Shown here in pieces: positions 1 through 50,984 of a DNA stretch of 64,000 nucleotides. The notes beneath the pieces were generated by a model. That model was not told the origin of the DNA, did not search any database, and saw only the letters and a list, made by a program, of their open reading frames with translations. A program made the position numbers and the translations under genes. Numbering within the stretch: position 1 is the first letter of the stretch; each line of letters opens with the position of its first letter. This DNA is from Minisyncoccota bacterium (GTDB lineage: Bacteria; Patescibacteriota; Minisyncoccia; Phycocordibacterales; UBA5272): positions 416,342-480,341 of the forward strand of contig JAXLZS010000001.1 in NCBI GenBank assembly GCA_046350775.1, given 5' to 3'.

Positions 1-265
1 AATATTTTTCTGAATTTTCTAATGCATATTGAAATTCTGAAAGATTGTCATGAGGATGAAGACCGACAGAATAAAAAATATTTTCATTTTTCATGGCCAA
101 ATCTTTAGCTAATTCGCTCTCTTTTAAATCAGTACCGATACAAATCGTAGCGATTTTATTTTTATTCATGTCTGATATTACCCTCTCTAGATCATCTTGA
201 TAATCTTTAAAATTTAAATGTGAATGAATATCTATGTATTCTATTTTTGACAGATCTAAGTACAT
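1..265 (-). CDS. TatD-family metal-dependent hydrolase/DNase, N-terminal part (runs off window start)
   Basis: Reverse translation from ATG at 263-265: MYLDLSKIEYIDIHSHLNFKDYQDD... The IDxHxH motif is typical of TatD. Classic position downstream of metG. Confidence 0.6.
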   Translation of the reverse strand, partial: MYLDLSKIEYIDIHSHLNFKDYQDDLERVISDMNKNKIATICIGTDLKESELAKDLAMKNENIFYSVGLHPHDNLSEFQYALENSEKY

Positions 266-266
266 A

Positions 267-899
267 TTATTTGTTATTTATTAAATAATTTTCTTTAACA
301 AAGATCTTAACATTATTATTTAATTCTATAATTTCTGGGAATTCTGAACCATATTTAGAATCTAAAATATTATGCTTGTCGTCTAAAAAATTAAAAAAAT
401 AATCTTTGCCTAAACCGCTATTATTAATATAGGAAAAATCACTCAAAAAATGAGAAGTTTCTGGTAATATTTTATCTACCAATTTTATAAATCTAGCTTC
501 TTTTGTGTCTTGCGACTCATATTTTTCTATCATCTCATGAATATATGGAAACTCAAAACCAAATTCTTCTTTAATTCTTTCAAAAGATTCTTTTTCTCTT
601 TCTTGTTTTTCTTTTTTTGATTCTTCTGATGTGTTAACAAAAGAATTTGTATCTCCAGCATAGACCTCAACCAGATCATGGACTAAAGCAAATTGAGAAA
701 CTAAGCCAATATCTAATTTATTTTTGTAAAAAGTGTCTGCAAGTGAGCAAGCAATTAAGGAAAGCATAAAAGTATGATCTGTGTCGGACTCATTTCTTAC
801 ACCATCTTCATGATGAGTAACTCTATTCACTTTGGCAAAAGTCAAAGATAATTTTGCTAAATCAAAAATCTTTTTTGTATAATCTTTTTTGTCTTTCAT
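267..899 (-). CDS. HD-domain phosphohydrolase (YfbR-like 5'-deoxynucleotidase family)
   Basis: H..HD..D metal-binding motifs (RVTHHEDGVRNESDTDH...HDLVEVYAGD), 210 aa. Confidence 0.55.
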   Translation of the reverse strand: MKDKKDYTKKIFDLAKLSLTFAKVNRVTHHEDGVRNESDTDHTFMLSLIACSLADTFYKNKLDIGLVSQFALVHDLVEVYAGDTNSFVNTSEESKKEKQEREKESFERIKEEFGFEFPYIHEMIEKYESQDTKEARFIKLVDKILPETSHFLSDFSYINNSGLGKDYFFNFLDDKHNILDSKYGSEFPEIIELNNNVKIFVKENYLINNK

Positions 900-902
900 A
901 TA

Positions 903-2378
903 TTAATCTTTTCTTGGAAAGAGTGGCGACTCTGGTTTTTTGTTTTCCCTAATTAATTCTTGAATCTTTTTTGAAGTCTCTGGCATCATTGGTTCTAAAG
1001 CGAGAGCTATGCCAAACAAGTGATAAAGTAAATAATGAACATCTTTTTTTGCTTCTTCTTCATCTATTTTCATCTTTTTAAATGGTTCATTTTTTGCAAT
1101 AAACTCATTTAAAGTTGAAATATTTTCCCAGATATTATTCATCTGTTATCAATTTCAAAACTATCCATCTCTTTAGAATAATCTATTTTTGGATAATAAT
1201 CTTCATTTGTATTTATGGGTTCACTTAAATATTTTTCTGAAAGAGTTAAAAATACGAGAAGTTAAATTCCCAAGACCATTTACAAGTCCAGAATTAGCAT
1301 CTTTAAATCTCTCCATGGTAATGGGACTATCTTCAAAACTCGAAACTTCTTTAATAAAAAATATCGAAGAGCATCGACTCCGTAGTTTTCTACAATGTCT
1401 TTTGGATCAACAGTATTTCCAAGACTTTTACTCATTTTTACCCCACCTTCTCCTGTAATAAATCCATTTATAATTATATTCGTAGAATTTCCAATTCCCG
1501 CAGACATTAGCATCGCCTGCCACGTAGCAGCTTGATAGCGAAGATTGTCTTTACCACAATATTGTACTACTTCTCTTGATATCCATTTTTTATATTTTCC
1601 GGCTGGTTCCAAAATTCGCTAAATTTTGTACCAGATAGTTGGGGCCATCCAAGTGTAGAAATATAATTTGTAAGAGCATCAAACCAAACATACATAACAT
1701 GCTCATCATCAGGCATGTGTATACCCCAACTCATTTTTGATTTTAATCTTGAAACAGAGAAATCTTGTAATCCTTTTTCTACAAAATTTTTAATTTCATT
1801 AAATCTAAAATCTGGTATCACAAGATTTGAGTTTTTTCATAAAATTTTAATAAATCATTTTGATATTTAGAAAATTTGAAAAAAATAATTTTCTTTCTTC
1901 ACGAATTTCCAAATTCCCTATTTGGGTGTATTGGACATTTTCCTTCGTCATTTAATTCCGAATCTTGTTTTTCATCTTCACAACCTACACAATATTTCAT
2001 TTTGTAATTTTTTTCTCTATATCACCTTTCGCTTTACATATTTTCCATAATTCTTGAGCCGCTTTAATATGATTTTCATCTGTGGTACGAATAAAAGTAT
2101 CATTTGAAATATTTAAAATATTCTCATTAAATCTTGAAATTTTTGAGCATTTTGATCTACATATTTTTGAGTTTCAATTCCAGCATCTTTTGGGTTGCCT
2201 CCAAAAGTTTTTGTCCATGCTCATCTGTACCAGTATTAAAAAACACTTCGTAACCTAAAAGGTTTTTATATCTAGCTATCGTGTCTGTACGAACAAATTC
2301 TAAAGCGTGACCTATATGAAGCGGAGCATTCACATAAGGCAAAGTAGTGGTGATGTAAAATTTCTTGTTATTTTCCAT
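903..2378 (-). pseudogene. metG: methionyl-tRNA synthetase broken into at least 5 frames (about 8 frameshifts, mostly at A/T homopolymers)
   Basis: Fragments carry the HIGH motif (PLHIGHALE), the zinc-knuckle CVGCEDE...[62 protein letters not shown] and an anticodon-binding C-terminus. They are in the right order but in different frames, so no single frame spans more than about 110 aa. Confidence 0.7.
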
Positions 2379-2383
2379 AATTC

Positions 2384-3448
2384 TTAATATAAGATAAACT
2401 GTTCATTTTCTTTCTTTTTTCTATAATCATCTAATATTTCCATAATAATAGTAGACACTGGTATAGCAATCAAAGCCCCCCAAAATCCAGCCACCATCGC
2501 ACCCATAATGACGGAAACGATGATCATAATTGGAGGTATACCTGCTAGTTTACCAACTATTTTAGGATAAATAAAGTATGAAGAAATTTGTGAAATTATA
2601 AAAAAACATACAAGAGTTATAATCATCAATGATAGGCCGCCAATATTCCAAGCTAAAAATAAAGCTGGGATAGAAGCGGAGACTATACCTAAAATTGGCA
2701 TCAACTCAAAAATGAAAGCCAGTATTGAAATAGAAAGAGCGAAAGGTATGCCAAGAATTAATAGAGTAATATAAACCATGATAGCCACAAAAAAAGCAGA
2801 GACTATTTGTCCTATAAACCAATTTGAAATTTTTATCTGACTTCTTGCCACCAGATCCTCAATATAGTTTTCATATTTTCTTGGAGAAACAAGACGTAGA
2901 AAGTTGTGTACCCCTTTTTCATTTATTGAGATATAAAATGATATAACCAAAGTCAGAACAAAATTAACTAAAAAGTCTATTAAGGATGAAGTGCTGGCAA
3001 TTATTCCACCAGTAGACAAGATCTTTGATTGGGCTATATTTGCCAATTCGCTTGTATCTAGATTATTTGCAAAACTAGAAAAAGCTGAAAGTTTATTAGA
3101 GTCTAAAAATTTAATAGAAGAATATTTTATAGAATCTAAGTTATTTAAGAAATCTGGAAGTTTCTTAATAGTTGAACCTATATATTCAATAGCTGTAGGT
3201 AAGAAAAAATAAAATAATAGAAATACTAGACCGAGTGATACTAAATAAAAAATAACAACTGATAATATTCTTGGGAATTTAAATCTTTTCAAAAGATTTA
3301 CTACCCTATCGACAACTGAAGCTATGATAACAGATAAAAACAAGACAAAAACTATTGATCTGAAATAATAAAGACCATAGAAAAACAATATCCAAAGAAT
3401 GACTCTTATTATAGACCTGTTGGAAATATCTATTTTATTTGTATGCAT
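2384..3448 (-). CDS. AI-2E family transporter (PerM/UPF0118-like permease)
   Basis: 354 aa with about 8 predicted TM helices and AI-2E-like topology and length. Confidence 0.5.
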   Translation of the reverse strand: MHTNKIDISNRSIIRVILWILFFYGLYYFRSIVFVLFLSVIIASVVDRVVNLLKRFKFPRILSVVIFYLVSLGLVFLLFYFFLPTAIEYIGSTIKKLPDFLNNLDSIKYSSIKFLDSNKLSAFSSFANNLDTSELANIAQSKILSTGGIIASTSSLIDFLVNFVLTLVISFYISINEKGVHNFLRLVSPRKYENYIEDLVARSQIKISNWFIGQIVSAFFVAIMVYITLLILGIPFALSISILAFIFELMPILGIVSASIPALFLAWNIGGLSLMIITLVCFFIISQISSYFIYPKIVGKLAGIPPIMIIVSVIMGAMVAGFWGALIAIPVSTIIMEILDDYRKKKENEQFILY

Positions 3449-3503
3449 AATAATTATTTATTTTTATAAATAAAGTATAGCATTAAAGAATATTTAATAA
3501 AAA

Positions 3504-4898
3504 TTAGTTATTTTTTACTACCCAAGATCTCTCAAAAGAGATATTTTGATCATTTGACACTTCTGTCTCAGATTTTCTTTCCCCTTTAGCAAAAATCTGT
3601 AAATTAATACTATTGTCTCCTGCCAGGTTTTTGACTGCCCTGATTTTTAATCTAATTTTACCTGTACTATTGGCACCAATCTGAGAAAATTCTGGTATGG
3701 TATTTTTATCCCAAATTGCAAGATTTAGATCTCCATCGTAAATACCATCTATGGCTTGAGTATAATTTTTATCTATTCCATCACCGTCAAGTTTAGCAGA
3801 TATTACTAAATTATCTATTGGATAATTAAGATTGTTTTTATAAGTAAAATCAAGCATAATAAGATCATTTGTAGAGACAATATTTTCACCATTTGTACTA
3901 TCTCCGACAAGAGAAATATCTATATATTGTCCAGAAATTAAAATACTTTTTTGCACTTGTGTATAAATATTGTCTAAATTTAGATTAAAATTATCATAAT
4001 TTCCTAAAGTAGAAGAACCGTTTGTGCTAGATGAATTATTTGGAGTACCAGCATAAAATGTAAACTGATCAGTAGCACCAATATCACCAGTCAACTTACC
4101 AGAAAAAGATATTTGCTTCTCTTGTCCGGCGGAAAGGTTTTGGATAAGCCAAGAAGGATTATTGTTGTACCTAGCTTGTGAAGATGAAGAGTAGACAAAG
4201 TCATTTGGAGGGCGGACTGTTACTATGAGATTTTTAATATCTTTTCTAGTATTGTTTTTTATTTTTAAATTTATAGTATTTATATTACCCTGATGAAATT
4301 CTTTTAGAGTTTCTACCGTTATGGTGACCGGTGAACTTTTTAGAGTTATAGAAATAGGATCTGCTAATTTATTAAATTCCGCATTTGAACCATTAATTTT
4401 ATAAAAAAAGGTAGCAGAGACTTGTCTATTTACGCCTTCATTACCAAACAAAACAACGGATACACTCTTATTGGAAAAATCATCAGCTAAAATCTGCCCA
4501 ATATCAATTTTTTGAGAAATAATATTTTTTGCACCAGAAACATTTTCGCCAGAGTCGTATTGAACTATAACGTAGGCCTCATATATTGGTGTCTTGTTTT
4601 TATTTTCTATTTTTAAATTTACTGACCCTGGCTCACCGCTCGACAAAGAAGAAGAACCCGATATTACAAAATTAATATTGTTCGCAGAAAAAGCTGAATT
4701 ATTTGAAAATAACGAGTAAAGTACAAAAGCTCCCACTAAAAAGAATATACTAAAAGATATTAAAAAAAATTTTAGAGAAAAACTCATGCCATGCTTTTCT
4801 TCTCCATGATATTTAAAATCACCAAGATCACTATCGTCCCAGCTTTCAGGAATTTTAACTGGCTCATTTTGAGTTTTAGCTTTAAGGTTTATATCCAT
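3504..4898 (-). CDS. hypothetical membrane-anchored extracellular protein
   Basis: One N-terminal TM segment (FFLISFSIFFLVGAFVLYSLF), then a beta-rich, N/S/T-rich extracellular region of 464 aa. No recognisable catalytic motif. Confidence 0.4.
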   Translation of the reverse strand: MDINLKAKTQNEPVKIPESWDDSDLGDFKYHGEEKHGMSFSLKFFLISFSIFFLVGAFVLYSLFSNNSAFSANNINFVISGSSSLSSGEPGSVNLKIENKNKTPIYEAYVIVQYDSGENVSGAKNIISQKIDIGQILADDFSNKSVSVVLFGNEGVNRQVSATFFYKINGSNAEFNKLADPISITLKSSPVTITVETLKEFHQGNINTINLKIKNNTRKDIKNLIVTVRPPNDFVYSSSSQARYNNNPSWLIQNLSAGQEKQISFSGKLTGDIGATDQFTFYAGTPNNSSSTNGSSTLGNYDNFNLNLDNIYTQVQKSILISGQYIDISLVGDSTNGENIVSTNDLIMLDFTYKNNLNYPIDNLVISAKLDGDGIDKNYTQAIDGIYDGDLNLAIWDKNTIPEFSQIGANSTGKIRLKIRAVKNLAGDNSINLQIFAKGERKSETEVSNDQNISFERSWVVKNN

Positions 4899-4906
4899 TT
4901 TATAAA

Positions 4907-5500
4907 TTATAACATAGTCTCTCGCAGTACATGTAGCACATGTTTTTTTACTTCTTTTTCATTTAAAATGAAATGGGTGTAAAAATCTTTTACAGAAAAA
5001 CTTTTATATTCTTCTATATCTTTTGCCCCTATAATACTAGCGTCCGCATATCCAGTATCTACTAATACCAAATAGTAAATTAGTATTTTAAAATTATTTA
5101 TTTCTAAAATATCCACGCCTTGATCCAGAAAAAATATTGATTTTATCTTATCAAATAATTTTTTATAAGTTTTCTTTTCTTCGATAAATTTAAAAATTAT
5201 CTCACTTATCACCTTTTTAGCTTTGAAAGACCAGGATTTGGTGATATTAGAATTTAGATCTAAAAATAATTCCTCAGCCCCTACCAATCTCCAAATATCT
5301 CTACCTTTTACCAGGGTGATAATAATAAAATCATTTTTCTTTATTATCGGTCTCAATTTGGCGTTTATTTTTCTTATGGATTTAGCTATAGCAAAAATAA
5401 TACCAAATTCTCTCGTCCATACTTTGTAGACAATATCATGCTCACCTTGCTCATATTCTCTTAAAATAAAAGCTTCTGTAGTGTATTTATCATGAGACAT
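4907..5500 (-). CDS. recO: DNA repair protein RecO-like
   Basis: N-terminal EAFILREYEQGEHDIVYKVWTREFGIIFAIAKSIRK matches the RecO OB-fold signature. 197 aa. Confidence 0.4.
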   Translation of the reverse strand: MSHDKYTTEAFILREYEQGEHDIVYKVWTREFGIIFAIAKSIRKINAKLRPIIKKNDFIIITLVKGRDIWRLVGAEELFLDLNSNITKSWSFKAKKVISEIIFKFIEEKKTYKKLFDKIKSIFFLDQGVDILEINNFKILIYYLVLVDTGYADASIIGAKDIEEYKSFSVKDFYTHFILNEKEVKKHVLHVLRETML

Positions 5501-5510
5501 TGTTGGTCAT

Positions 5511-8500
5511 TTAGTTAATTAAGATAATTTCCTCCTTTTGAGATTCTTCAAATTTTATATCAGACAATTTACAGTCTTTAATTAATTCTTCTTTAAAGCT
5601 TTCGATAAAATCTTTTCTTTCTGAATTGGTTTTAATCAAAAGAGAAACAACATCACTGGCGACAAGATTGTTTTCTTTTCTTAGATCTTTTATCTTTCTT
5701 GTGAGCTCACGATAATCCCCTTCTTTTTTTAATTCTGGAGTTATCTCAAGATCTAGAATTATATTTTTACCTTCTTCATAATTTTGTTTTTCATCTATCT
5801 TTATATCTTTGACATTGATTTCTTCTTTTAGAATTTCAAAATATTTTTCGTCTATTTTTATTTTTGTAGTTAAAGAAGATAGCGGCTGACGGACTGGAAT
5901 ATTATTTTTTTGTCTTACCATGAGAGCTTCGGTGACTACATCTCTCACTTTTTGCATGTCTAGTAATATTTCTTCTTTATTTGATCGAAGAGAAAAGAAT
6001 TTTTCTGGCCACTTTTCAAGATGTACACTTTCTTTTTTGTCTTTATTATTTTTATTTATTGACTGATAAATTCTTTCAGCCAAAAATGGCATAAAAGGAG
6101 CAATGACTAGAGAGAATTTATTCAAGACAAAATACAATGTATACAAAGTCTCATCGTCATCATTTTTTAATTTTTCCCTTGATCTACGCAAATACCAAGT
6201 AGATAGATCATCTATAAACTTTTCAAAAGGACGAGTTGCTTGATCGAGTCTATACTGATCCATAGACTTTGTAGTATTTTCTAAAATCTCATTTAGTCTG
6301 ACTAATATCCAGAGATTGAGAGGATCTTTTATCTCAATATTCTTTGGCATATCTATATCTAACATTTCATAAAAGCTTAAAATATTTTCCAATTTTGAAA
6401 CTATTTTCTTATAACTTTCTTCTACGAGCGAATCAGGAAAAGCTACATTTTCAGCGCACATGAGTGGAGAGGAAAGTAGAGAATATCTAAACGCGTCTGC
6501 TCCAAATTTTTCTGCCAAAATCAGTGGATCTGTGTAATTATTTTTACTCTTACTCATTTTTTCCCCATCACCAGCCAATACTAGTCCATTGACTATGACA
6601 TTTTTATAAGAAGCTTTATCAAATATACCTACAGACAAGTTGAGTAAAGAGTAAAACCATCCTCTGGTCTGATCAAGACCTTCAGCTATAAAATCTGCTG
6701 GGAAAGTTTTTTCAAACAATTCTCTGTTTTCAAATGGATAGTGAAGTTGACCATAAGGCATAGATCCAGATTCAAACCAACAGTCAAACACATACTCAAC
6801 TCTTGTCATCTCTTTACCATTTTTACTTAAGAGTTTTACCTGATCTATGTATGGACGATGTAAATTGATTCTTCCTTTTTCATCTCTTGGCACCAGGCTT
6901 AGATTTAATTTTCTTATCTCAGCATTTCTTGGATAAAGTCTAGTATCATTAGATAACTCATCTTTTATCACCTCTTCTTCTGTGATCAGTTCACTACCGG
7001 CGATCATCATCCTCATTGGACCACCATGAGTGACTATCAATATTTTTTTACCATTATACCTTTCTTCTAAATTATAGATTCCAGCCATGACTCTATCCAT
7101 GACTTCTTGATGACTTTCCCCTCCACCTATCTTTACTTTAAATTTTAAATAATCAATACCTAAATCCTGGTGAAGTTTTTCTGATGTTTGACCACTATAC
7201 ACTCCAAGATCTATTTCTACAAAATGCTCATCTATCAATATTTCTTTGTCTCCGGCCATTATAGATGCTGTCTCTTTAGCTCTGGGATATGGTGAAGATA
7301 TTATAATATCGAAGTCTACGTTATTTTTCTTTTTAGCATCTTCCACTTGTATTACACCGAGATCTGTTAAAATATTTTCAGGGTCCATTTTAGTTTCTTC
7401 AATACCTTTCACATTATGCATAGCTTCTCCATGACGCATAACATAATATTCATTTTTGGGTTTTGCTATATTGGATTCTGTCAACTCTTTTAATGATCCG
7501 ATTATTCTTACTTCATCACCGTCCACCTCTTTCCAGATTGGTAGAGGAGCACCCCAGTAGCGACTTCTTGAGACAGCCCACTCACGAGCCCCCTCTAGCC
7601 ATTTTCCAAATCTTCCGTCACGTATATTTTCTGGAGTCCAATTTATTTTTTGATTTTCAGACAAATTTTTTTCTTTAATTTTTGGAACGTTTACAAACCA
7701 AGAGCTGGTAGCATAATTTAAAAGTGGAGTATCACATCTCCAGCAAGTTGGATATGCGTGAACTAATTTTTCTTTTGCAAAAAGAAGTTTCTTTTCTGCT
7801 AAATATTTTATGATACCAATATCAGCTGATTGGTTGTCTCTGGATGTCTTTACTTTTATACCAGCAAAATCTGTTACTTCTTTTGTAAATTCACCATTCA
7901 TCCCGACATGTTTGATAATAGGAAGTTTCTTTTCTTTTCCGAGATTAAGATCGTCTTCACCAAAAGCTGGGGCAATATGTACAACTCCAGTACCAGTATC
8001 AAGTGTCACAAATTCAGCATCCACTATGGTGTAAATATTTTCTTTATTTTCAAGATTTGCATCAAGATAATAATCAAAGACTGGTTTATATTTTTTACCA
8101 ACCAATTCTTCACCATTAAATTCTGAAATTATTTCAAATTCTAAATTTTCTTTTTTAAATACATCTTCTAACCTATCTTTTGCTAAGATAAAATTTTCTC
8201 CAGAATTTATTTTCACCTTCGCATATTCAAAATTTTTATTTACAGCGAGAGCTACATTTCCTGGTAAAGTCCAAGGAGTGGTGGTCCAAGCAAGCACAAA
8301 AGTGCCAAGCTCATCTACCAATTCAAATTTTACTGTCACAGAAATATCTGTCAGATCTTTATAATTTTGAGCAACCTCGGATTGAGCGAGAGTAGTCTCA
8401 CATCTTGGGCAGATATGCATACTTTTATGACCTTCAAAAACTAATCCTTTTTTATCGAGCTCTTTAAATGCCCACCAGACAGATTCAGTATAAGTATAAT

Positions 8501-8963
8501 CCAGAGTCTTGTAAGAATTATCCATATCTATCCAGCGACCAAATCTAGGTATTACATGCTTCCACTCCTCTTCATATGCAAAAACACTGGCTTCTGCAGC
8601 TTTATTAAAATTATCAATACCAAAATCCTCAATATCTTTTTTGGATTCCAAATCAAATTTTTTCTCGACTAGATTTTCTATTGGCAAACCATGACAATCC
8701 CAACCCCAGACTCTTCTGACATAATTTCCTTTCATTGTCTCATATCGAGGGATGGTATCCTTTATAGTACCAGCCAAAAGATGGCCATGATGTGGGAGAC
8801 CTGTCGCAAATGGAGGGCCGTCATAAAAACTAAAATTACCTTTTGGATTTTCTCCGGCTGGCTTTTCGAGAGATTTTTCAAAAATTTTATTCTTCTGCCA
8901 GAATTCTAAAACTTCTAACTCTTTTTCATTTATAGTTTTATCTTTGTTTTGATTTGGATTCAT
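5511..8963 (-). CDS. ileS: isoleucyl-tRNA synthetase (type 2) with an inserted histidine-phosphatase-like domain
   Basis: HIGH motif (PHHGHLLAG), KMSKS, WRCDTPL, WAVSRSRYWGAPLPIW and NLHRPYID. The ATG at 8961-8963 (MNPNQ) is the likely start; the ORF-track start at 8990 is a TTG. A roughly 200-aa block containing RHGEAMHN...THGG lies between PIW and LHRP. Confidence 0.85.
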   Translation of the reverse strand: MNPNQNKDKTINEKELEVLEFWQKNKIFEKSLEKPAGENPKGNFSFYDGPPFATGLPHHGHLLAGTIKDTIPRYETMKGNYVRRVWGWDCHGLPIENLVEKKFDLESKKDIEDFGIDNFNKAAEASVFAYEEEWKHVIPRFGRWIDMDNSYKTLDYTYTESVWWAFKELDKKGLVFEGHKSMHICPRCETTLAQSEVAQNYKDLTDISVTVKFELVDELGTFVLAWTTTPWTLPGNVALAVNKNFEYAKVKINSGENFILAKDRLEDVFKKENLEFEIISEFNGEELVGKKYKPVFDYYLDANLENKENIYTIVDAEFVTLDTGTGVVHIAPAFGEDDLNLGKEKKLPIIKHVGMNGEFTKEVTDFAGIKVKTSRDNQSADIGIIKYLAEKKLLFAKEKLVHAYPTCWRCDTPLLNYATSSWFVNVPKIKEKNLSENQKINWTPENIRDGRFGKWLEGAREWAVSRSRYWGAPLPIWKEVDGDEVRIIGSLKELTESNIAKPKNEYYVMRHGEAMHNVKGIEETKMDPENILTDLGVIQVEDAKKKNNVDFDIIISSPYPRAKETASIMAGDKEILIDEHFVEIDLGVYSGQTSEKLHQDLGIDYLKFKVKIGGGESHQEVMDRVMAGIYNLEERYNGKKILIVTHGGPMRMMIAGSELITEEEVIKDELSNDTRLYPRNAEIRKLNLSLVPRDEKGRINLHRPYIDQVKLLSKNGKEMTRVEYVFDCWFESGSMPYGQLHYPFENRELFEKTFPADFIAEGLDQTRGWFYSLLNLSVGIFDKASYKNVIVNGLVLAGDGEKMSKSKNNYTDPLILAEKFGADAFRYSLLSSPLMCAENVAFPDSLVEESYKKIVSKLENILSFYEMLDIDMPKNIEIKDPLNLWILVRLNEILENTTKSMDQYRLDQATRPFEKFIDDLSTWYLRRSREKLKNDDDETLYTLYFVLNKFSLVIAPFMPFLAERIYQSINKNNKDKKESVHLEKWPEKFFSLRSNKEEILLDMQKVRDVVTEALMVRQKNNIPVRQPLSSLTTKIKIDEKYFEILKEEINVKDIKIDEKQNYEEGKNIILDLEITPELKKEGDYRELTRKIKDLRKENNLVASDVVSLLIKTNSERKDFIESFKEELIKDCKLSDIKFEESQKEEIILIN

Positions 8964-9215
8964 AGTTTTTAAAATAATAAAATCGCCCAAGATTTATAAA
9001 TCAAGGGCGATTCTAAAAATTTATTGTCGCGGTACCACCTTGTTCACAAAATACTTTGATATTTTGCCTTATTTATCGGGCTCTACTCGTCTTTTCGACT
9101 TTCTTCCCAAAGCTCGAGAGTGATTAGTTCTGTCGTCGCTTTTATAAGATAATAATATCACAAAAAATAAAAGCCACAAAATTTGTGTTTTCATATAATA
9201 ATGCTATTATCAAAG
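8964..9215 (-). promoter_or_regulatory. T-box riboswitch leader of ileS (Ile/AUC specifier likely; terminator/antiterminator)
   Basis: Minus-strand GGTGGTACCGCG at 9028-9039 matches the T-box consensus AAnnnGGGUGGnACCGCG. Terminator hairpin aatcgccc...gggcgatt at 8981-9012 is followed by a U-run. Candidate AUC specifier around 9150. Confidence 0.55.
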
Positions 9216-9231
9216 CAGAAAAACATTTTAT

Positions 9232-9714
9232 ATGGAAAAATTCTTTAGGGATAATTGTTTAAAAAACTTCGTCATATTAAATAATCTTGCAAAGAATGGA
9301 AAGTTTGATGATATAAACCAACTTATTTTTGAAACAAAAAAAATAATAGGCTACAAAATAGAATTAAATCTATTAGATACTACTTTTTCATTACTTGGAA
9401 GAGTTGTTCCAAAATCAGGAGGTTTTACTATTTATTTGAATAGAAATATGGATAATGACCTATATAGATTTGTCTTAGGTCATGAGATAGGGCATATATT
9501 AAATTCTTTTGAATATACAAGACCTTGGCCAACAATTATTTCATACATAGAAAATCTTGAGGAAAAAATTTGTGACTATATAGGTTTAGAATTATCAAAT
9601 TCTAAAATAGATTTTTTAAATAAGATAAAAATGTATGAAAAACTTTCCAATAAGAGATTAATTGATGAGTTGGTTTTAAACGAATATGTTAAACGAAACA
9701 ATTTAAGAATGTAA
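9232..9714 (+). CDS. ImmA/IrrE-family (DUF955-like) putative zinc metallopeptidase
   Basis: HEXXH in LGHEIGHIL. 160 aa. Confidence 0.4.
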   Translation: MEKFFRDNCLKNFVILNNLAKNGKFDDINQLIFETKKIIGYKIELNLLDTTFSLLGRVVPKSGGFTIYLNRNMDNDLYRFVLGHEIGHILNSFEYTRPWPTIISYIENLEEKICDYIGLELSNSKIDFLNKIKMYEKLSNKRLIDELVLNEYVKRNNLRM

Positions 9715-9740
9715 ATATTTTATTTGCATTCTTTTTGTTT

Positions 9741-11525
9741 TTACATTCTCTCCACTTCATCTATACCAATCATATTCATTCCTTTTTTGAGAACTTTAGC
9801 AAAAGATTCCACTAGATAAAGATTTAATTTTGTCTGATCATGATTTTCCATATCTATAATTTTTACCTTTCCATAAAAAGTATTAAATGCTTGAGTCAAT
9901 TCAAATAAATATTTGATCACGAGTTGTGGAGCGATTTCTTCAATAGCTTTTTTAGCTAAAGATTCAAACTCTACTACTTTTTTCATTAGAGGAAGATGTG
10001 AGTCAGAAACATTATTATTAAGCTCTGGTTTTATCTCAGATTTTTCTAATAAAGAATTGGCGCGAGCATAAGTATAAAGAAGATATGGACCAGTCGCCCC
10101 CTCAAAGCTAATAGAAGTGTCGAGATCAAAAACAATATTTAATCCTGGCTTTGATTTTAAAATTGCCACACGAAGAGCTGAGAGAGAAATATTTTTTATT
10201 AGATTATTTAAATCTTTATCATTTAGATCTTTGACTTTTTCAGACAATCTCTCAGCTACTCTCGTATTCACTATTTGAAGAGTATCTTCGACAGTCAAAA
10301 CATTACCAAGTCTACTTGATAATCTTTGTCCTTGAAGATTAAGTCTTCCGTGAGATATGTGAGTACTTTTTTCTACTATACTTTTCCATTCTTCATTGAG
10401 CTGTCTTGCTGCTTCGAGTACAATCTCAAAATGAGGTACTTGTTCATTGTCTGTTATAAAAAGATTAAAATCAAAATCAAAATAATTATACTTTAAGGCA
10501 AGCAATCCTAAATCTTTAGCTTCATAAGTCGGATGTCCTTCACTGTTTATAAATACAGACTTGATTGTCTCATCACTCTCATTATTCTTTTTTCTTTTTG
10601 TATCAAAAACTATTGCGCCACCCTCTCCGATCTGAAACACTTCCCCTTCTCCTTCGAGATTCATATTTTCTTTGACTATCTCTTCACCTTTGACTCCTGC
10701 TTCAGACTCGTAAATAAATTTATCAAAATGAGATCCGAGCTCGGCTAAAATTTTCTCAAAATATTCTATATTGATTTTTTTAGAAGTTTCAAAAATTTTC
10801 CAATCCTCAGTCTCTTTATTTTTTTCAAAAAGATTTCTAGCGATTGAGACTATTTCTTCTCTCAAGTTTTCATTTTCATCGTAGATTTTTACACCTTCCA
10901 CATAAGCGTCTCCCAAAATTTTAATAATATTAGGATCAGAAAAATCTAAATCTGGTTTATTTTTTAATACAAATATTGCTTTTGCTATACCGATAGAAAT
11001 ATCAGACGGGAAAGCCATAACTTTTAGATCTGCCTTGGTAGATCTCATCATCTTTACGATAGATTCACCTATCACATTATTCATAAGGTGGCCAATATGA
11101 AATGGCTTGAAAAGATTTATAGCACTGTGCTCGACTAATACTTTTTTATTTGTAAATTTTGTTTCAATGAAATCTAGATTAGAGACTCTGGCTAATTCGT
11201 CACTTAAATATTCTTTTTTCAAAAAAATATTTATAAATCCGTTTGGAGCGACCTCTACACTTTCGATAATATTTAAAAACTCACCTTTTTCTTCTATATT
11301 TATATTTATTTGTCTTACGATCTCTTCCGCTATATCTTTAAAATTTTTACCAGTCTTTTTTGTGAGTATTAGAGATATATTTGTGGCAATATCACCAAAT
11401 CTACTATTGGACTCATCTATAAATGAGACGTCGAACTTAAAATCCAAAATCTCAGCTTCATTTATAAAGCCTATATCGACACAAATCTCAACTATTTCCT
11501 TTTTAATTGTTTCAAGTATTGTCAT
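9741..11525 (-). CDS. argS: arginyl-tRNA synthetase
   Basis: 594 aa with class I HIGH-like FHIGHLMN, a DALR-type anticodon-binding C-terminus and a terminal ...ERM end typical of ArgRS. Confidence 0.85.
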   Translation of the reverse strand: MTILETIKKEIVEICVDIGFINEAEILDFKFDVSFIDESNSRFGDIATNISLILTKKTGKNFKDIAEEIVRQININIEEKGEFLNIIESVEVAPNGFINIFLKKEYLSDELARVSNLDFIETKFTNKKVLVEHSAINLFKPFHIGHLMNNVIGESIVKMMRSTKADLKVMAFPSDISIGIAKAIFVLKNKPDLDFSDPNIIKILGDAYVEGVKIYDENENLREEIVSIARNLFEKNKETEDWKIFETSKKINIEYFEKILAELGSHFDKFIYESEAGVKGEEIVKENMNLEGEGEVFQIGEGGAIVFDTKRKKNNESDETIKSVFINSEGHPTYEAKDLGLLALKYNYFDFDFNLFITDNEQVPHFEIVLEAARQLNEEWKSIVEKSTHISHGRLNLQGQRLSSRLGNVLTVEDTLQIVNTRVAERLSEKVKDLNDKDLNNLIKNISLSALRVAILKSKPGLNIVFDLDTSISFEGATGPYLLYTYARANSLLEKSEIKPELNNNVSDSHLPLMKKVVEFESLAKKAIEEIAPQLVIKYLFELTQAFNTFYGKVKIIDMENHDQTKLNLYLVESFAKVLKKGMNMIGIDEVERM

Positions 11526-11560
11526 GTATTTATTTTGTTTATTTTAACAGAAAATTGGAA

Positions 11561-11590
11561 ATAAAAAAACAGAGAACTTGTCTCTGTTCT
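11561..11590 (-). terminator. rho-independent terminator after tmk
   Basis: Hairpin aacagaga-acttg-tctctgtt followed by a U-run on the minus strand. Confidence 0.5.
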
Positions 11591-11614
11591 TAAATTCCCA
11601 AAATCAAAGAGATC

Positions 11615-12244
11615 TCAGCTGTAGATAATGTTTTGAATGATTGTTTTTATTTTAAAGGCTAATTGGTGGATATTTTCACCGCCGTCTACACGATAAACAT
11701 TTTCACCATTTCTCTTCTCTAAAATATCAAAAAACTCAATATATCTATCTCTTCTCCCTTTGATTTCTTCATATACCGCTGCATCAAAATGATTTAAATC
11801 TCTACCTTTTGCAAGGTTGCGACGATTTAAACTTTCTTCAGGTGTTATATCTAAAAAGATATAGTGCGGCTCTACTCGACCTTCAACAATTTCTGCTCGC
11901 AAATCCCAAAACAATTTTCTCAATTCTGGTGTTTTAATTTGATAAGCAAAAGAGGAAGCATCAAAGCGATCGGAAATCACATCGACACCCTTTTTGAGAG
12001 TTGGAATGACTTTTTCTACCAGGTGGATTTCTCTGGATTTAAAAAACAATCCTAGCCTTTCAAAATCCGAAATTTTTCCACCTTCGTCGCTCAGCAAAAA
12101 ATTTCTGATTTCTTCTGCTCTTGGTGTACCACCAGGCTCTCGAGTCCAGATAGATTTTTGAAAAGTTTCTTTTGTAAAACCAATTTGCGTACCTTTTCCG
12201 GAATAATCTATTCCTTCAAATACGATTAACTTACCTTTTTTCAT
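11615..12244 (-). CDS. tmk: thymidylate kinase
   Basis: P-loop KGKLIVFEGIDYSGKGTQ matches the dTMP kinase signature. ATG at 12244. Confidence 0.8.
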   Translation of the reverse strand: MKKGKLIVFEGIDYSGKGTQIGFTKETFQKSIWTREPGGTPRAEEIRNFLLSDEGGKISDFERLGLFFKSREIHLVEKVIPTLKKGVDVISDRFDASSFAYQIKTPELRKLFWDLRAEIVEGRVEPHYIFLDITPEESLNRRNLAKGRDLNHFDAAVYEEIKGRRDRYIEFFDILEKRNGENVYRVDGGENIHQLAFKIKTIIQNIIYS

Positions 12245-12407
12245 ATAAAAGAATTTAAAAGATGACGAAATGAAATACAACTATAAAAATCATACAAAAA
12301 TGAAAATACAAAATCAATCTTGCAAAATAAGTGAAAAGTGTTAGTATTTAAAGTGATAGTTATAGTATTTTCTATAACAAAAGATCGTTCATTAAAAAAT
12401 TTAAGGT

Positions 12408-13340
12408 ATGGAAAAACAGTCTTTAATTGAAAAGTATGGGTGGGAATATCCATACCTTTCAGGAATGCAAGCTTGTTTAGAAACGGGAGATCGAAGACAA
12501 ACAAGAAACGCTGTAACTCATGCAAAATTTGTTCACCAAATGCGATTCGATTTAAAAAAAGGTTTTCCTTTGTTAACAACAAAGGAAGTTAATTTCGAAT
12601 TGGTCGTGGCTGAATTGCTCTGGTTCCTTGAAGGAGGAAGAAAACCTAACATTGAGCGGGGAGAATTGTTTGGCCGCATGTCATTAAAACGCCTTGAGGA
12701 AATTTATGGCAAAAAAATAACCCAAATGTGGGTTGGTGATGCTGAAAATTTTTCAAAAAGAGGTAAAGCAAAATTTGAAGGAGACAATGGAAGAATCTAT
12801 GGATCACAATGGACCAACTGGAACACGGCTGATGGTAAAGTTATAAACCAAATAGCCGATCTTATTGAAAAATTAAAAGCCGATCCATATGGTCGCTATG
12901 GTAGAGTTACCGCCTGGAATCCTGGGGAAATTTTTGATATGTCCCTTCCAGCATGCCACACAGACTTTCAATGCTTCGTAAGAACCGGTCATGATAAAAA
13001 CTTTTTATCACTACACATGAACCAAAGAAGTTGTGATATGTTTTTAGGCGTACCATTTAACATTGCAAGTTACGCCTTGTTAACTTATATGCTTGCCCAG
13101 GTTTGTGATCTGTATGTGGACGAACTTATCGTAACTCTAAACGATTATCATGTTTATGAAGACCATATACCAATGGTAAAAGAACAACTTACTCGTACGG
13201 CCGGCGAAATGCCAAAATTATGGATTAATCCCGAAATTCTCGACATAGATTCATTTAATATGGCGAGTTTTAAATTAGCGGATTATAATCCACAATCCAA
13301 AATTAAGGCAAAAGTTTTGACAGCAAATGTAAAACCTTAA
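12408..13340 (+). CDS. thyA: thymidylate synthase (canonical ThyA)
   Basis: RVTAWNP, catalytic PACH, QRSCDMFLGVPFNIASYALL, DYHVYEDH. Confidence 0.9.
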   Translation: MEKQSLIEKYGWEYPYLSGMQACLETGDRRQTRNAVTHAKFVHQMRFDLKKGFPLLTTKEVNFELVVAELLWFLEGGRKPNIERGELFGRMSLKRLEEIYGKKITQMWVGDAENFSKRGKAKFEGDNGRIYGSQWTNWNTADGKVINQIADLIEKLKADPYGRYGRVTAWNPGEIFDMSLPACHTDFQCFVRTGHDKNFLSLHMNQRSCDMFLGVPFNIASYALLTYMLAQVCDLYVDELIVTLNDYHVYEDHIPMVKEQLTRTAGEMPKLWINPEILDIDSFNMASFKLADYNPQSKIKAKVLTANVKP

Positions 13341-13345
13341 TTTAA

Positions 13346-13386
13346 GAAAAAATCCCTGACTAATTTTGTCAGGGATTTTTTATTTT
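13346..13386. terminator. bidirectional rho-independent terminator (thyA / rplK)
   Basis: Hairpin atccctgac-taattttgtcagggat flanked by an A-run and a T-run. Confidence 0.6.
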
Positions 13387-13812
13387 TTACTTCACTTCAA
13401 GACCCATACTTCTCGCAGATCCTTCAATAATTTTCATTGCTTGCTCGACAGTATTTGCATTTAAGTCTGCCATTTTCGCTGTTGCAATCTCTTTGATTTT
13501 ATCTTTAGTGATTGTACCAGCTCTTGAAACTTTATTTTTACTTGAACCTGTCTTGATACCAGCTCCTTCTTTTAAAAGATATGAGGCTGTAGGAGTCTTG
13601 ATATAAAAATCGTAAGTTCTATCTTCATAAACATATATTTTCACAGGAAGAATACCTTTCATTTCTTTTGTCGCAGCGTTGAATTTGTTTACAAAGTCAC
13701 CAATCTGAACACCGGCCTGACCAAGAGCAGGACCAAGTGGAGGAGCAGGCACAGCTTTACCAGCTTCAATCTCAACCTTTACGTATTTTAGTATTTTTTT
13801 TGCATTAGCCAT
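13387..13812 (-). CDS. rplK: 50S ribosomal protein L11
   Basis: PPLGPALGQAGVQIGDFVNKFN is an L11 signature. 141 aa. Confidence 0.9.
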   Translation of the reverse strand: MANAKKILKYVKVEIEAGKAVPAPPLGPALGQAGVQIGDFVNKFNAATKEMKGILPVKIYVYEDRTYDFYIKTPTASYLLKEGAGIKTGSSKNKVSRAGTITKDKIKEIATAKMADLNANTVEQAMKIIEGSARSMGLEVK

Positions 13813-22128: not shown

Positions 22129-22204
22129 GGGAGATTAGCTCAGTTGGTAGAGCAACTCGTTTACACCGAGAAGGTCAGAGGTTCGAGTCCTCTATCTCCC
22201 ACCA
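22129..22204 (+). tRNA. tRNA-Val (UAC); integration target of the downstream element
   Basis: 7-bp acceptor GGGAGAT/ATCTCCC, D-arm TAGCTCAGTTGGTAGAGCA, anticodon loop TTTACAC, T-arm GGTTCGAGTCC, 3' CCA. Confidence 0.85.
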
Positions 22205-23711
22205 GAATAGTACTTAGCGGTTTCTTCGAAACCAAGGTATGGGACGCACGAAGTGCGTCCCACTGTGTTTGCCCTGATTTTGCGGGGGAATTCTGAAATG
22301 CGGGTGCGCTTACGCGCACCTGTTTTTCGCCAAGAGAAAGGTTCGAGCCAAAGATTTCTTTGGCTTTGACCTTTTTAGCAAAAAGGTCAGTATCCCGTGC
22401 GATTCCGTCTAGTGTTTGCGCGTCTTTTATCCATTCTTTCATCGGTTCGAGCCAATCATTCTGTTTTTGTAGAACTGAAGATATTTTGTCTTCGAGCGAC
22501 TTCTTTTCGGATAACAATTTAGCTTTTTGTACACGATATATTTCCTGTTCAATCACTTGGTCTAAATATCCATTAAGAAGTCGCTCTAGTTTCACATTGA
22601 TTTTCAAAATATCTTTTTTCACTTCTTCTACAAAAACAGAATTAGACTGGGCAGAATTGTTGAAATCCTTTTCCGCCATTTTCAACAATTCTTTTGCCCA
22701 GTCTTTAGGCAAAGAAACTTTTTGAATTTCGGATGATATCTGCTGATCCAAAATTTCACTGCGAATATATCCTTGTGTACATTTGATACTTTTGTTTTTC
22801 TTGGAACAACGATAGTACACATGACCTTTTTGGATTTCAGCAGTTATCATCATTCCGCATTCGGTGCAGTGAAGTAGTCCGCAAAATGGTTGTGGCTCAT
22901 TTTTTGGTTTTCTATCGGGTTGTCCTCTAAATTTCAACATCGACTGCGCCGAATCAAAAAGTTTCTTTGCTATGATTGGCTCGTGCTTACCTTCGTGGAT
23001 TTCACCACCATATTTGAATAGTCCGATGTAAAATGGATTTGAAAGAATAAAAGACGCTTTGGTTTTTGAGATTCTCTTTCCGGTTCTTGTTGTAACGCCG
23101 GATTTCGCCAAAAAATTTGCAATATCTTCCAGTCGTTGATTACCTTTTACATATCGTTCAAAAGCCAAGCGCACAATTTTAGATTTTTTCTTGTCCACGA
23201 CTATGGTCTTGGTACGACTGTCATTCATATAACCGAGTGGCGCTTGGCTTGGAAATATTCCCATTCTCACTTTTTGGCGAAGTCCTCGTCTCGTATTTTC
23301 TGAAAGAAAATCTACATAGTATTTGCTTTGCACAAATGCCATGGAAAGTGAAAATTTCCCTTGTGATGTATTTTCAAACCAAAAAGTGGGAAATTTTAAC
23401 ATCGCAAGAGTACCGATGTCGATAAAATACACTATCTGTCCGCCGTCCACAGAATTGCGCGCTAGTCTGTCGGGATGCCAAGCCAAAATTCCTGAAGCTA
23501 CCCCTTGCTCAATTTTTTTCATCATACTGTTAAATATTGGACGACCTGGAATTTTGGCGGATTGTTTCTCGACCAACTCCTCAACTATCTCTAAACTTTG
23601 TTCACGAGCAAACGCGCGCAATTCCGTTAACTGTGCCTCAATACTCAAAACCTGCTTATCCTCGACATCGGTACTCTTGCGAGCATACAAAAAGAATTTT
23701 TGTGATGACAT
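22161..23711 (-). CDS. large serine recombinase (resolvase/invertase catalytic domain + recombinase domain + zinc ribbon)
   Basis: N-terminal FFLYARKSTDVEDKQVLSIEAQ (catalytic Ser), a Cys cluster CGLLHCTECG...YYRCSKKNKSIKC and a coiled-coil C-terminus. The last ~55 codons run through repeat A and the tRNA-Val 3' end and may be non-coding read-through. Confidence 0.8.
   Translation of the reverse strand: MSSQKFFLYARKSTDVEDKQVLSIEAQLTELRAFAREQSLEIVEELVEKQSAKIPGRPIFNSMMKKIEQGVASGILAWHPDRLARNSVDGGQIVYFIDIGTLAMLKFPTFWFENTSQGKFSLSMAFVQSKYYVDFLSENTRRGLRQKVRMGIFPSQAPLGYMNDSRTKTIVVDKKKSKIVRLAFERYVKGNQRLEDIANFLAKSGVTTRTGKRISKTKASFILSNPFYIGLFKYGGEIHEGKHEPIIAKKLFDSAQSMLKFRGQPDRKPKNEPQPFCGLLHCTECGMMITAEIQKGHVYYRCSKKNKSIKCTQGYIRSEILDQQISSEIQKVSLPKDWAKELLKMAEKDFNNSAQSNSVFVEEVKKDILKINVKLERLLNGYLDQVIEQEIYRVQKAKLLSEKKSLEDKISSVLQKQNDWLEPMKEWIKDAQTLDGIARDTDLFAKKVKAKEIFGSNLSLGEKQVRVSAPAFQNSPAKSGQTQWDALRASHTLVSKKPLSTILVGDRGLEPLTFSV
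22202..22331. repeat. inverted repeat A (left copy, about 130 bp, hairpin-dense)
   Basis: Its reverse complement matches 23901..24030 at about 93% identity. Differences fall in a hairpin and are compensatory (ggtgcgc...gcgcacc vs gtacgcgc...gcgcgc). Confidence 0.8.
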
Positions 23712-23728
23712 ATATTTTTCTATAAAGC

Positions 23729-23797
23729 AGAAATGGCTACTCCAGTGCTGTAACCTTAACGTAAGTTAAGATATCTGAAATAGCCATTTCTGCTAAC
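23729..23797. promoter_or_regulatory. imperfect palindrome upstream of the recombinase gene (candidate operator/recombination-site-like)
   Basis: agcagaaatggcta ... tagccatttctgct is a 14-bp outer stem, with an inner cttaac-gtaa-gttaag palindrome, immediately 5' of the recombinase start. Confidence 0.35.
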
Positions 23798-23900
23798 TTA
23801 CTAATAAAATGGTTACAGCAAATATATTCTACCAAAAATTCTTTTTGTATCCAAAGCAAATACTGAATTTGTATCGCACGGGATTCCGAACCTCCTCCTC

Positions 23901-24030
23901 GGCGAAAAACAGGTACGCGCAAGCGCGCCCGCATTTCCGAATTCCCACGCAGAATCAGGGCAAACACAGTGGGACGCACTTCGTGCGTCCCATACCTTGG
24001 TTTCGAAGAAACCGCTAAGTACTATTCTGG
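23901..24030. repeat. inverted repeat A' (inverted copy of A)
   Basis: See repeat A. Directly abuts repeat B. Confidence 0.8.
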
Positions 24031-24262
24031 TGTCTCTATTGTACCAAGCTCGAACGATTTTCCAAAACCGAACCTAATCGCACATCCGTGCGCTAAAGCG
24101 CCTCTGTGCGAAACACAGAGCTTTTGCAAAGCAAAAGGACGGATATGCGAAATGCAAATGCGGAACGCGAGCGAAATTTTGCGAAATACTGGGGGTGTGG
24201 GGGAAAGTATTTCGCAAAATTCGCTTCGCGTGCTTTGGGATTTTTTTGGCGGGGCGGGCGGT
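24031..24262. repeat. inverted repeat B (232 bp, 100% identical inverted copy at 25870..26101)
   Basis: A perfect match over 232 bp containing at least 5 hairpins, e.g. ctctgtg-cgaaa-cacagag, cttttgc-aaa-gcaaaag and a 19-bp stem gcgaaattttgcgaaatact/agtatttcgcaaaattcgc. Confidence 0.85.
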
Positions 24263-24293
24263 ATCAAATAGAAAAAACCAATTCTGTTTTTTT

Positions 24294-25725
24294 CTATTCA
24301 ACATCAACAATCAAAACATCATAAGGATTAAAAGCAATATAATCAAAAAGATTCACTTTAGTATCCGTTCTTGTTTCTTCGTTTTCATTTTGCTTTACCC
24401 ACACACCGTCATATTTACCTCTCCATTCTTGTGAATCTTTTGGATTAGCCCAATAGTTTGGTTTGGAATCAAAAATTTTGAAATTTCTACCATTAACAAA
24501 AACTTTATACGGTTTAGAAGTCTTACCTTCAATTTTTCTACCCTCGTGATGATGCTTTGCTTCTTCTTCATTTCCGAAAAATACACCAACTTCAAATTCA
24601 TTTCCGTCTATTTTCTTTTTTAGAAACAAATTCTTTAAATTTTTCAATATCAGTTTTTGAGCCAAGGATAGAAATTTGATCTGGATGAAAAACACTGATA
24701 ATTTTTTGTTTTGGTAATCCAAATTCTCGTCCTGAAACTGGATGTTTTTCAATATATTCTTCTCCCGAGATATTATTTATCACTGCATCTGTATTTTCTA
24801 ATTTTTCATCGAACTTTGGGGCTAATATATTCTTTTCTTTTTGCTTACCTATTTTAAACAAAGCTTCAGACAAAGGCCTGTCCATATCATCCACATATTC
24901 ACCTGAAGTATTGACCTCAATAGGATTATTGATATTCAAAATTACAGCATACGCATTTTTTCCGTATCTTTTAACAAAATTCTGACTTGTACTGAAATTA
25001 TAAACACCTTCAATGCTATTAAGCGTATCAAAGTTGGGCTTTGTTGGTTTAAAATTCTCATCTTTAAATTCATTATCAGAATAGTGCCAGACAATATCTT
25101 GCACTTTGCTTTCAGGAAAAATAGTTTTTAGATATTCACAATAAAGCTCAACTGCTTCTTTTGTCTCAAATTGTTTAACTTTTTCTTTTATTTGTTCTTT
25201 GGCTTTTTGTAAGTTCTCAAAATTACCAACTTTATCTTGAACATCATCAAGGTTAATATAATTTCGTTCTATATTTTCGGGAATAATATAGTTATCATTT
25301 TCAACATCCATTTGCGAAGCGATTGGATGTTTACTTACATGTAGATTTTCAAATTCTTCTTTTGGCACTTTTACAACTACCAAATTTGCACCCTCAACTC
25401 GCTTCGCCTCTGTGCCAAATGTCTGTTGTGATTTTCGTAAATATACAAGAGCAGTTTCTAAATCTGGCGAAAACCATTGACCCTTTAAATCTTTATGGGA
25501 AGTTACTCCATCAGGTTCTTTCTCAATATTTTTATTTTCAATACGATAAAGGGAAATGGTTTCGCCAGATTTTGTTGCTTCTACTGCAATACTCTCAAGT
25601 TCAGGGCTAAGTTTAAAAACCTCTTGTATATTTTTCTCCTGTTCAGAAAGCGGAAAATGCTCAAGCGGTTGCTCGGTTTTTGGCAATTCAATTTTATCAA
25701 CAGGATTAACTGGTGACTTTTCCAT
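24294..25725 (-). CDS. cargo protein of unknown function, about 475 aa if a +1 frameshift in an A6 run at ~24614 is corrected (ORF track splits it into 375 aa and 152 aa)
   Basis: The ...EFVSKKENRRK* frame and the FLKKKIDGNEFEV... frame differ by one nt inside ctaaaaaag. No recognisable catalytic motifs. Confidence 0.45.
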
Positions 25726-25869
25726 AAAGTGATTTTAACATTTTTCGCTTTCTTTTTCTAGTTATTTTAGGGAGCAGAATTTGTGCGCGAACGGGAGGGT
25801 GGGTCAAGCACAAACTGATTTTTGTATCTCGGCTTCGCCGAGATTTCAATGTTATGTATTTGAATTATA

Positions 25870-26101
25870 ACCGCCCGCCCCGCCAAAAAAATCCCAAAGC
25901 ACGCGAAGCGAATTTTGCGAAATACTTTCCCCCACACCCCCAGTATTTCGCAAAATTTCGCTCGCGTTCCGCATTTGCATTTCGCATATCCGTCCTTTTG
26001 CTTTGCAAAAGCTCTGTGTTTCGCACAGAGGCGCTTTAGCGCACGGATGTGCGATTAGGTTCGGTTTTGGAAAATCGTTCGAGCTTGGTACAATAGAGAC
26101 A
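25870..26101. repeat. inverted repeat B' (right terminus of the element)
   Basis: Reverse complement of 24031..24262. Ends at ...caatagagaca, followed by chromosomal caaaaatac. Confidence 0.85.
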
Positions 26102-26110
26102 CAAAAATAC

Positions 26111-26138
26111 AAATAAAAAAGCAAACCATAAGGTTTGC
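26111..26138 (-). terminator. rho-independent terminator
   Basis: Hairpin gcaaacc-ataa-ggtttgc preceded by an A-run on the plus strand (a U-run on the minus strand). Confidence 0.45.
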
Positions 26139-26156
26139 TGATCAGACAATTTTTTA

Positions 26157-26324
26157 TTAAATCCCTCTCCTGCGATTATATCTTACTGCCAGATTGTTTG
26201 CTAAGGATTCTCTGAATCCTTTACTAGAAACCTGACCTTTTTGATGGTTTGTGATTTCATCCTTCAGTTTATGAAGAAGCACATCACTAGGTGAAAGATT
26301 AAAATATTTTTTTTTGTTAGCCAT
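26157..26324 (-). CDS. small hypothetical protein (55 aa)
   Basis: Manual translation MANKKKYFNLSPSDVLLHKLKDEITNHQKGQVSSKGFRESLANNLAVRYNRRRGI. Confidence 0.3.
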   Translation of the reverse strand: MANKKKYFNLSPSDVLLHKLKDEITNHQKGQVSSKGFRESLANNLAVRYNRRRGI

Positions 26325-26414
26325 TAACTAATTGGTTTATATGTTAAAAAATATAAATAGTCTATTTATTAATAGTAGCACATATAAAATTAAAAGTCAA
26401 TAGCTAAAAGCCTT

Positions 26415-50063: not shown

Positions 50064-50164
50064 AGTTTATAATATTAAATAAAGTTTTTCTAATGAAAAT
50101 ATTATATCATGAAAAACAAAAAGCAACTCAAATCGAGTTGCTTTTTCCGATTGAAATCGGAATC

Positions 50165-50809: not shown

Positions 50810-50984
50810 TTTCTGAAATTTTAAGTGTGATTGAAAAATTGTGAATGAATTGATTTTAGAATTAGTTTTGTGATAAATGAATATCACCTAAATACAGTAT
50901 ATCATACTGTATTTAATATGTCAATAGACACAAATAACAAACCCCACAATTAAGTGGGGTTTTTAAAAGGTTAAAAATAATTTT

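Follow-up and report, generated by a model that had tools for sequence, protein, structure and literature searches.

A shattered methionyl-tRNA synthetase gene in a Paceibacterota genome is probably a consensus artefact at a strain-variable locus

The gene for methionyl-tRNA synthetase (MetRS), metG, is interrupted by 11 frame-changing indels in the stretch of 64,000 nucleotides that we analysed (the window), and at this locus the deposited sequence has no uninterrupted open reading frame (ORF) for it. It is very probable that these frameshifts are a local artefact of consensus or assembly – an unpolished or patched consensus over a locus that varies among strains. The organism itself most likely possesses an intact metG. 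The argument is built on the mosaic structure of the gene, on the spectrum of its indels, on the existence of intact alleles in other assemblies and on the uniqueness of the broken version.

As deposited, metG extends on the minus strand from a start ATG at position 2378 to a stop at position 903. Its six largest ORF pieces measure 73, 33, 84, 110, 31 and 79 aa and are accompanied by shorter ones; fragments of the gene were deposited as four separate CDS of 79, 110, 84 and 73 aa (MFO0743849-52). A Pfam search showed that the pieces match MetRS profiles in colinear order, and these matches, together with the motifs, bear out the sequence-only reading that the landmarks of MetRS are present in order on a fragmented gene. 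The recognisable pieces are as follows.

2157..2378, minus strand: piece of 73 aa with the HIGH motif, containing LHIGHALE (PF09334 positions 1-57, 65 bits)
1899..2000, minus strand: piece with the zinc knuckle of the connective peptide, KYCVGCEDEK...GKCPIHPN, which aligns with homologues
1567..1821, minus strand: piece matching PF09334 positions 212-280
1280..1612, minus strand: piece with the KMSKS loop (PF09334 positions 271-358, 63 bits)
903..1142, minus strand: C-terminal helical anticodon-binding domain (Anticodon_3, 23.3 bits)

The zinc knuckle is a motif read from the letters, its metal binding being predicted only. The C-terminal piece scores just below the Anticodon_3 cut-off of 23.5 bits (the intact allele A described below scores 25.6), and aligns with MetRS homologues along its entire length. 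Every stop codon in metG is due to a change of frame and none was made by substitution; when all 13 indels relative to the intact allele are reverted, a single ORF of 492 codons without a stop is obtained. The pieces had been thought to occupy at least five reading frames, which cannot be, a single strand having three.

The remainder of the window, with a G+C content of about 30%, is densely filled with intact genes. The genes for the 1159-aa IleRS and the 828-aa PolA are whole, just as had been stated of the neighbouring genes at the outset; no other broken gene was found in the 64-kb window, and no second metG lies within it.

Exact protein look-ups matched the window to an NCBI metagenome-assembled genome (MAG) of Candidatus Paceibacterota, a single contig of 614,345 nt with locus tags U0469_. 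By the same look-ups the four metG fragment proteins occur in that NCBI record only, and the neighbouring AI-2E, PolA and tRNA_bind proteins are present in JGI and Logan assemblies too. Exact look-ups of the 73-aa and 79-aa metG fragments in the contig index gave no match. Comparison with related genomes had been proposed in the sequence-only reading: eight independent contigs have an intact or uninterrupted metG at the same position. In seven of them (L001-L007, of JGI and Logan origin and from several samples) the neighbour is an identical AI-2E protein and the MetRS, allele A, is whole at 492 aa. The eighth, L008 (from SRR26348422), is the sole independent contig with the exact HD-gene allele of the window, and it carries a different and diverged MetRS, allele B, of which it covers the last 233 codons in an uninterrupted reading frame. 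The disabling mutations are thus not reproduced in any of eight independent contigs with the same flanks, all of which have uninterrupted metG frames (in L008 over those last 233 codons).

The two alleles are strikingly different: their metG cores are 54-69% identical at the nucleotide level, in genomes that elsewhere share about 99.99% identity. The HIGF-type family to which allele A belongs includes P0001-P0004, and allele B falls in the HIGH-type family of P0007-P0012; relatives above 57% were found for allele A nowhere in the genome collection, and relatives above 76% for allele B nowhere among the metagenome contigs. In one related MetRS, P0001, an A-like N-terminus is joined to a B-like C-terminus, making it a natural recombinant of the A and B types. 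An alignment of window positions 3000..13448 with allele A contig L003 shows one base different and zero indels, whereas positions 250..2900 contain about 158 differing columns – a 2.6-kb SNP block amid otherwise identical sequence. Within this block, positions 2450..2900 carry about 12 SNPs relative to the A contigs, all of them synonymous, the AI-2E protein being identical. Since the SNPs that reach into the AI-2E gene (to about 2900) are all synonymous, the B flanks are natural variation under selection.

Two metG alleles segregating at one locus is real biology and an already known kind of event. In genomes that are nearly identical, the polymorphism has the look of a natural event in which recombination replaced one allele of an essential synthetase with another. 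Subpopulations of Streptococcus pneumoniae reportedly have two distinct MetRS genes, and the likeness to such allelic replacement or horizontal transfer of aminoacyl-tRNA synthetases lies in the two deeply diverged MetRS alleles at the same locus of near-identical genomes. The comparison bears on the natural A/B polymorphism and not on the frameshifts. As an observation in its own right, 23 of 122 related MetRS have Phe (HIGF or HVGF) in place of the last His of the HIGH signature, a residue of class I synthetases that is usually regarded as catalytic; among the 23 are the intact allele A (L003:11071-12546) and P0001-P0005.

When set against these alleles the metG of the window is a B|A|B mosaic, flanked by two intact genes.

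267..899, minus strand: HD-domain hydrolase, intact; allele of the B haplotype, with 8 SNPs relative to the A contigs and identical to L008
903..1145, minus strand: C-terminal 80 codons of metG, 100% identical to allele B of L008
1146..2193, minus strand: core of metG, differing from allele A of L001-L007 by 11 internal indels and 6 substituted bases and otherwise identical to it
2194..2378, minus strand: N-terminal 62 codons of metG, of the B-like allele family, with the motif PYVNAPLHIGHALE as in P0007-P0012
2384..3448, minus strand: AI-2E family transporter (permease), intact

From position 1 to position 1145 the window is 100% identical to L008. In the last 145 nt of this stretch (1001..1145), where the window matches B, alleles A and B share just 53% identity; across the adjoining 1146..1289 the window is, indels aside, 100% allele A, and the two alleles are about 55% identical. 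The switch at about 1145 therefore has no supporting homology. Around 1144..1146 itself A and B are about 54% identical, their sole shared string is the 5-nt ATAAA, and a 1-nt deletion is found there. On the other side, 14 residues encoded by 2194..2378 differ from allele A, and the switch from B-like to A sequence at about 2194 coincides with a +2 indel. This N-terminal junction is partly resolved: with L008 covering the last 233 codons of B, the B-like side is placed by likeness to the P0007-P0012 family. An exact 26-mer of the B-like N-terminal patch had no match among JGI metagenome contigs.

Measured against intact allele A over the 1,056 nt of core compared, the window has 13 indel events and 6 substituted bases (about 1.8%). 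Eleven of the indels change the frame – in order +2, +2, -1, +1, +1, +1, -1, -1, -1, +1 and -1 – and two are in-frame deletions of 3 nt. The initial estimate of about eight single-nucleotide shifts was therefore too low, and some of the events are of +2 or -3. In the direction of the gene the changes are these.

2193..2195, minus strand: indel of +2, ACC in the window versus G in allele A, at the B-like/A switch
2124..2125, minus strand: indel of +2, GA, outside a homopolymer
2008..2015, minus strand: indel of -1, A8 in allele A to A7
1915..1917, minus strand: indel of +1, with an adjacent A-to-G substitution
1896, minus strand: indel of +1, AA to AAA
1879..1885, minus strand: indel of +1, T6 to T7
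1829..1830, minus strand: indel of -1, CC to C
1711..1718, minus strand: indel of -3, one TGA-repeat unit, with 3 adjacent substitutions; WGIPVPDDDE becomes WGIHMPDDE
1577..1578, minus strand: indel of -1, AAA to AA
1352..1353, minus strand: indel of -1, A4 to A3, where alleles A and B agree
1322..1323, minus strand: 2 substituted bases (or +C and -T); F353I results, within the conserved DSPFT motif
1295..1296, minus strand: indel of -3, loss of TAC, the Tyr codon of DAYNSG; TAC is present in both alleles A and B
1248..1252, minus strand: indel of +1, T4 to T5
1144..1146, minus strand: indel of -1, exactly on the A-to-B switch

The substitutions in the core lead to P219H and V220M (in WGIPVP) and F353I (in DSPFT), at positions that are conserved in every homologue aligned. 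The view that the shifts fall mostly at A/T homopolymers holds in part: just two events lie in runs of at least 5 nt, six in runs of 2-4 nt and five outside runs altogether, while two of the 14 core homopolymers of 5 nt or longer carry an indel. Such a spectrum, dominated by indels that depend weakly on run length, is what long-read noise typically gives and is unlike replication slippage. A block of 96 nt, in which A and B are 96% identical, contains a pair of substituted bases and two of the indels of the window; at the site of each of these indels allele A matches allele B. We rejected the idea that the indels come from A and B reads mixed position by position, given that the core is free of B-type substitutions wherever B is known, except possibly at 1323, and given the two indels at sites where A and B agree. 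A diversity-generating retroelement was ruled out by inspection, the changes being mostly indels and not adenine-specific substitutions.

The contrast between core and flanks is extreme. Relative to the nearest relatives the flanks show one difference and no indel in 21,334 nt, against 19 changes in the 1,056 nt of core; at the flank rate 0.05 changes would be expected in the core, where the density of changes is about 200 times that of the flanks. With the flank rate set at its upper 95% bound, the Poisson probability of at least 19 changes in the core still falls below 1e-28, and it is about 1e-10 on the assumption that neutral sites change 10-fold faster. Both the amount and the spectrum of change in the core (13 indels to 6 substitutions) are inconsistent with neutral decay since divergence. 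Across the approximately 47 kb of the window that were compared, no indel discrepancy was found outside naturally diverged patches. In such natural variable patches, for example at 50000..51900, substitutions far outnumber indel columns and the gaps form compensating pairs in diverged sequence.

From these observations we infer a history of sequencing and polishing. A long-read draft, or a bridge made in gap filling, would have brought the allele A core into the contig. Polishing, or graph contigs, from reads in which B was the majority could then have corrected the alignable flanks inward from both sides. Correction derived from B would have been unable to cross the core, diverged by 30-45%, and may thus have left draft-level errors at about 1.8%. 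This proposed route would explain why the rest of the window is clean, why the junctions are arbitrary and bear indels, why the core is of A type and free of B-type substitutions, and why the broken allele is restricted to the NCBI record.

Consensus polishing of long-read metagenomes is known to be hampered by localized heterogeneity within a population (proovframe preprint, 10.1101/2021.08.23.457338), and circular Patescibacteria MAGs from Nanopore reads with Illumina polishing are a common product (PMC8012365). The metG of the window resembles the residual frameshift errors of long-read and hybrid metagenome assemblies in that the changes are mostly indels, are confined to a heterogeneous patch and are absent from independent JGI and Logan contigs, and in that the gene is split into short CDS. 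It differs in that the errors occupy one 1.05-kb core of a clean window and coincide with an allele switch. Searches of the literature on the sample, the run and the protein accessions found no relevant paper.

As an artefact would predict, the patch of errors coincides both with population heterogeneity and with a homology-free switch of alleles; the essentiality of MetRS, in a genome of just 614 kb, also speaks for this reading. Against it, the assembly is clean overall, so that a special local cause must be assumed, and relaxed selection, too, would be compatible with the two in-frame deletions and with the amino-acid changes at three conserved sites. The exact breakpoints are explained neither by a simple divergence threshold nor by any single known behaviour of assemblers.

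The mosaic could have arisen in the cell. It is conceivable, although unlikely, that the B|A|B haplotype is a genuine recombinant, intact in the organism, in which the indels alone are erroneous – for example if the haplotype is rare and thinly covered at this locus. MetRS genes of recombinant origin exist in relatives, reversion of the indels does restore a full ORF, and the SNP block at 250..2900 marks the locus clearly as a recombination hotspot. However, the C-terminal join lies in sequence of about 54% identity with 5 nt of microhomology, where homologous recombination does not resolve; in a strain whose abundance sufficed for a clean 614-kb contig, metG should be covered equally well; and no independent copy of the junction was seen in a search that was indirect only. 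Were such a recombinant real, the verdict on the frameshifts would be unchanged. The further step, to a real and recently inactivated chimeric pseudogene, in which illegitimate recombination brought an A-type core into a B-type strain and indels then accumulated, strikes us as decidedly unlikely. It would take the 11 breaks of the deposited sequence at face value, it would account for P219H, V220M, F353I and the deleted conserved Tyr as changes that relaxed selection allows, it can point to P0001 as a natural A/B-type recombinant, and it would befit the reduced genomes and presumed dependence on partners of organisms in this group. Yet the core has about 200-fold more changes than its flanks, with indels predominant, both allele switches occur without homology and each with an indel, and the broken allele is in no independent assembly, whereas the same flanks do occur next to intact A and B alleles. 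Methionine charging would have to come from a second metG elsewhere or from a partner organism; the 64-kb window contains no second metG, and to our knowledge MetRS is universally essential, with no bypass known. In sum, the pseudogene demands two illegitimate joins, a local burst of mutation of at least 50-fold made up mostly of indels, and a second MetRS. Real decay is marked by substitutions alongside indels, by a pace that matches the divergence of the flanks, by a preference for long runs and by inheritance among related strains. Like homopolymer-frameshift pseudogenes of reduced AT-rich genomes, the metG of the window is a housekeeping gene with multiple frameshifts in a small AT-rich genome; none of those hallmarks of decay holds for it. 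Of the three options originally put forward, assembly or consensus error is therefore the one favoured, the comparative data being hard to square with a recent pseudogene or with decay in progress.

It is very unlikely that the breaks are real in the full sense, such that a Paceibacterota cell with a 614-kb genome has only a shattered chimeric metG and relies for methionyl-tRNA charging on a cryptic second enzyme or on a host or partner; if true, the arrangement would be unprecedented for a cellular organism. We regard it as exceedingly improbable that the gene as deposited works by means of programmed recoding, whether by ribosomal frameshifting, by transcriptional slippage or by an alternative genetic code. 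In AT-rich endosymbionts, genes with frameshifts are reportedly rescued by transcriptional slippage at long poly(A) tracts, and the low G+C content of the window agrees with such a mechanism; but rescue would have to extend to 11 separate frame changes, which differ in sign and come in two sizes, and the majority of sites are runs of 1-4 nt or no run at all, which rules out rescue by slippage. In sister contigs metG is an ordinary single ORF, and the neighbouring genes read normally in code 11. Recoding of UGA, which had been dismissed from the start, or of any other codon is excluded in that the breaks are changes of frame and no break is an in-frame stop.

If the artefact is what it appears to be, the case is chiefly of practical value. 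The deposited 'complete' genome lists four bogus CDS for metG, and surveys would score an essential synthetase as missing; such apparent gaps in surveys of metabolism or completeness are easily taken for symbiotic dependence. The signature of the error is recognisable: an indel-only patch, bounded by non-homologous allele switches, in an otherwise perfect contig.

A stand-alone protein corresponding to the domain often fused to the C-terminus of MetRS had been noted elsewhere in the window, and it is real.

29831..30151, minus strand: stand-alone tRNA_bind protein (PF01588; Trbp111/CsaA-like), intact, Pfam match

It has no connection with the breakage of metG, because the same protein is found on population contigs that cover its locus and the intact 492-aa MetRS of allele A is likewise without a fused C-terminal Trbp111 domain. 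The lineage normally carries the tRNA_bind protein, and loss of metG is not the reason for its presence.

Several other loci in the window deserve mention. The patch at 50000..51900 is a second strain-variable patch, with about 200 substitutions and compensating gaps relative to L131-L133 and L142; it holds genes of unknown function, adjoins a T2SSE-type ATPase (52269..54044) and, unlike metG, has intact ORFs. A large serine recombinase of 516 aa (22161..23711; Resolvase, Recombinase and Zn_ribbon_recom domains) overlaps the end of tRNA-Val (22129..22204), and an exact match to it was found in none of the other assemblies. The region 22129..26400 has a G+C content of 0.40 compared with about 0.30 elsewhere, its ORFs after the recombinase are without Pfam matches, and it is probably a strain-specific integrated element. 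Finally, the 1159-aa IleRS (5511..8990, minus strand) contains a histidine-phosphatase domain (PF00300 His_Phos_1, aa 516-666, 104 bits, E 9e-30). This domain (about 6993..7445) is inserted inside the class I catalytic core, the tRNA-synt_1 match being split around it. The same architecture is seen in an identical gene on L001, L003 and L006 and also in the form of 1150 aa that is called on L002, L004 and L005.
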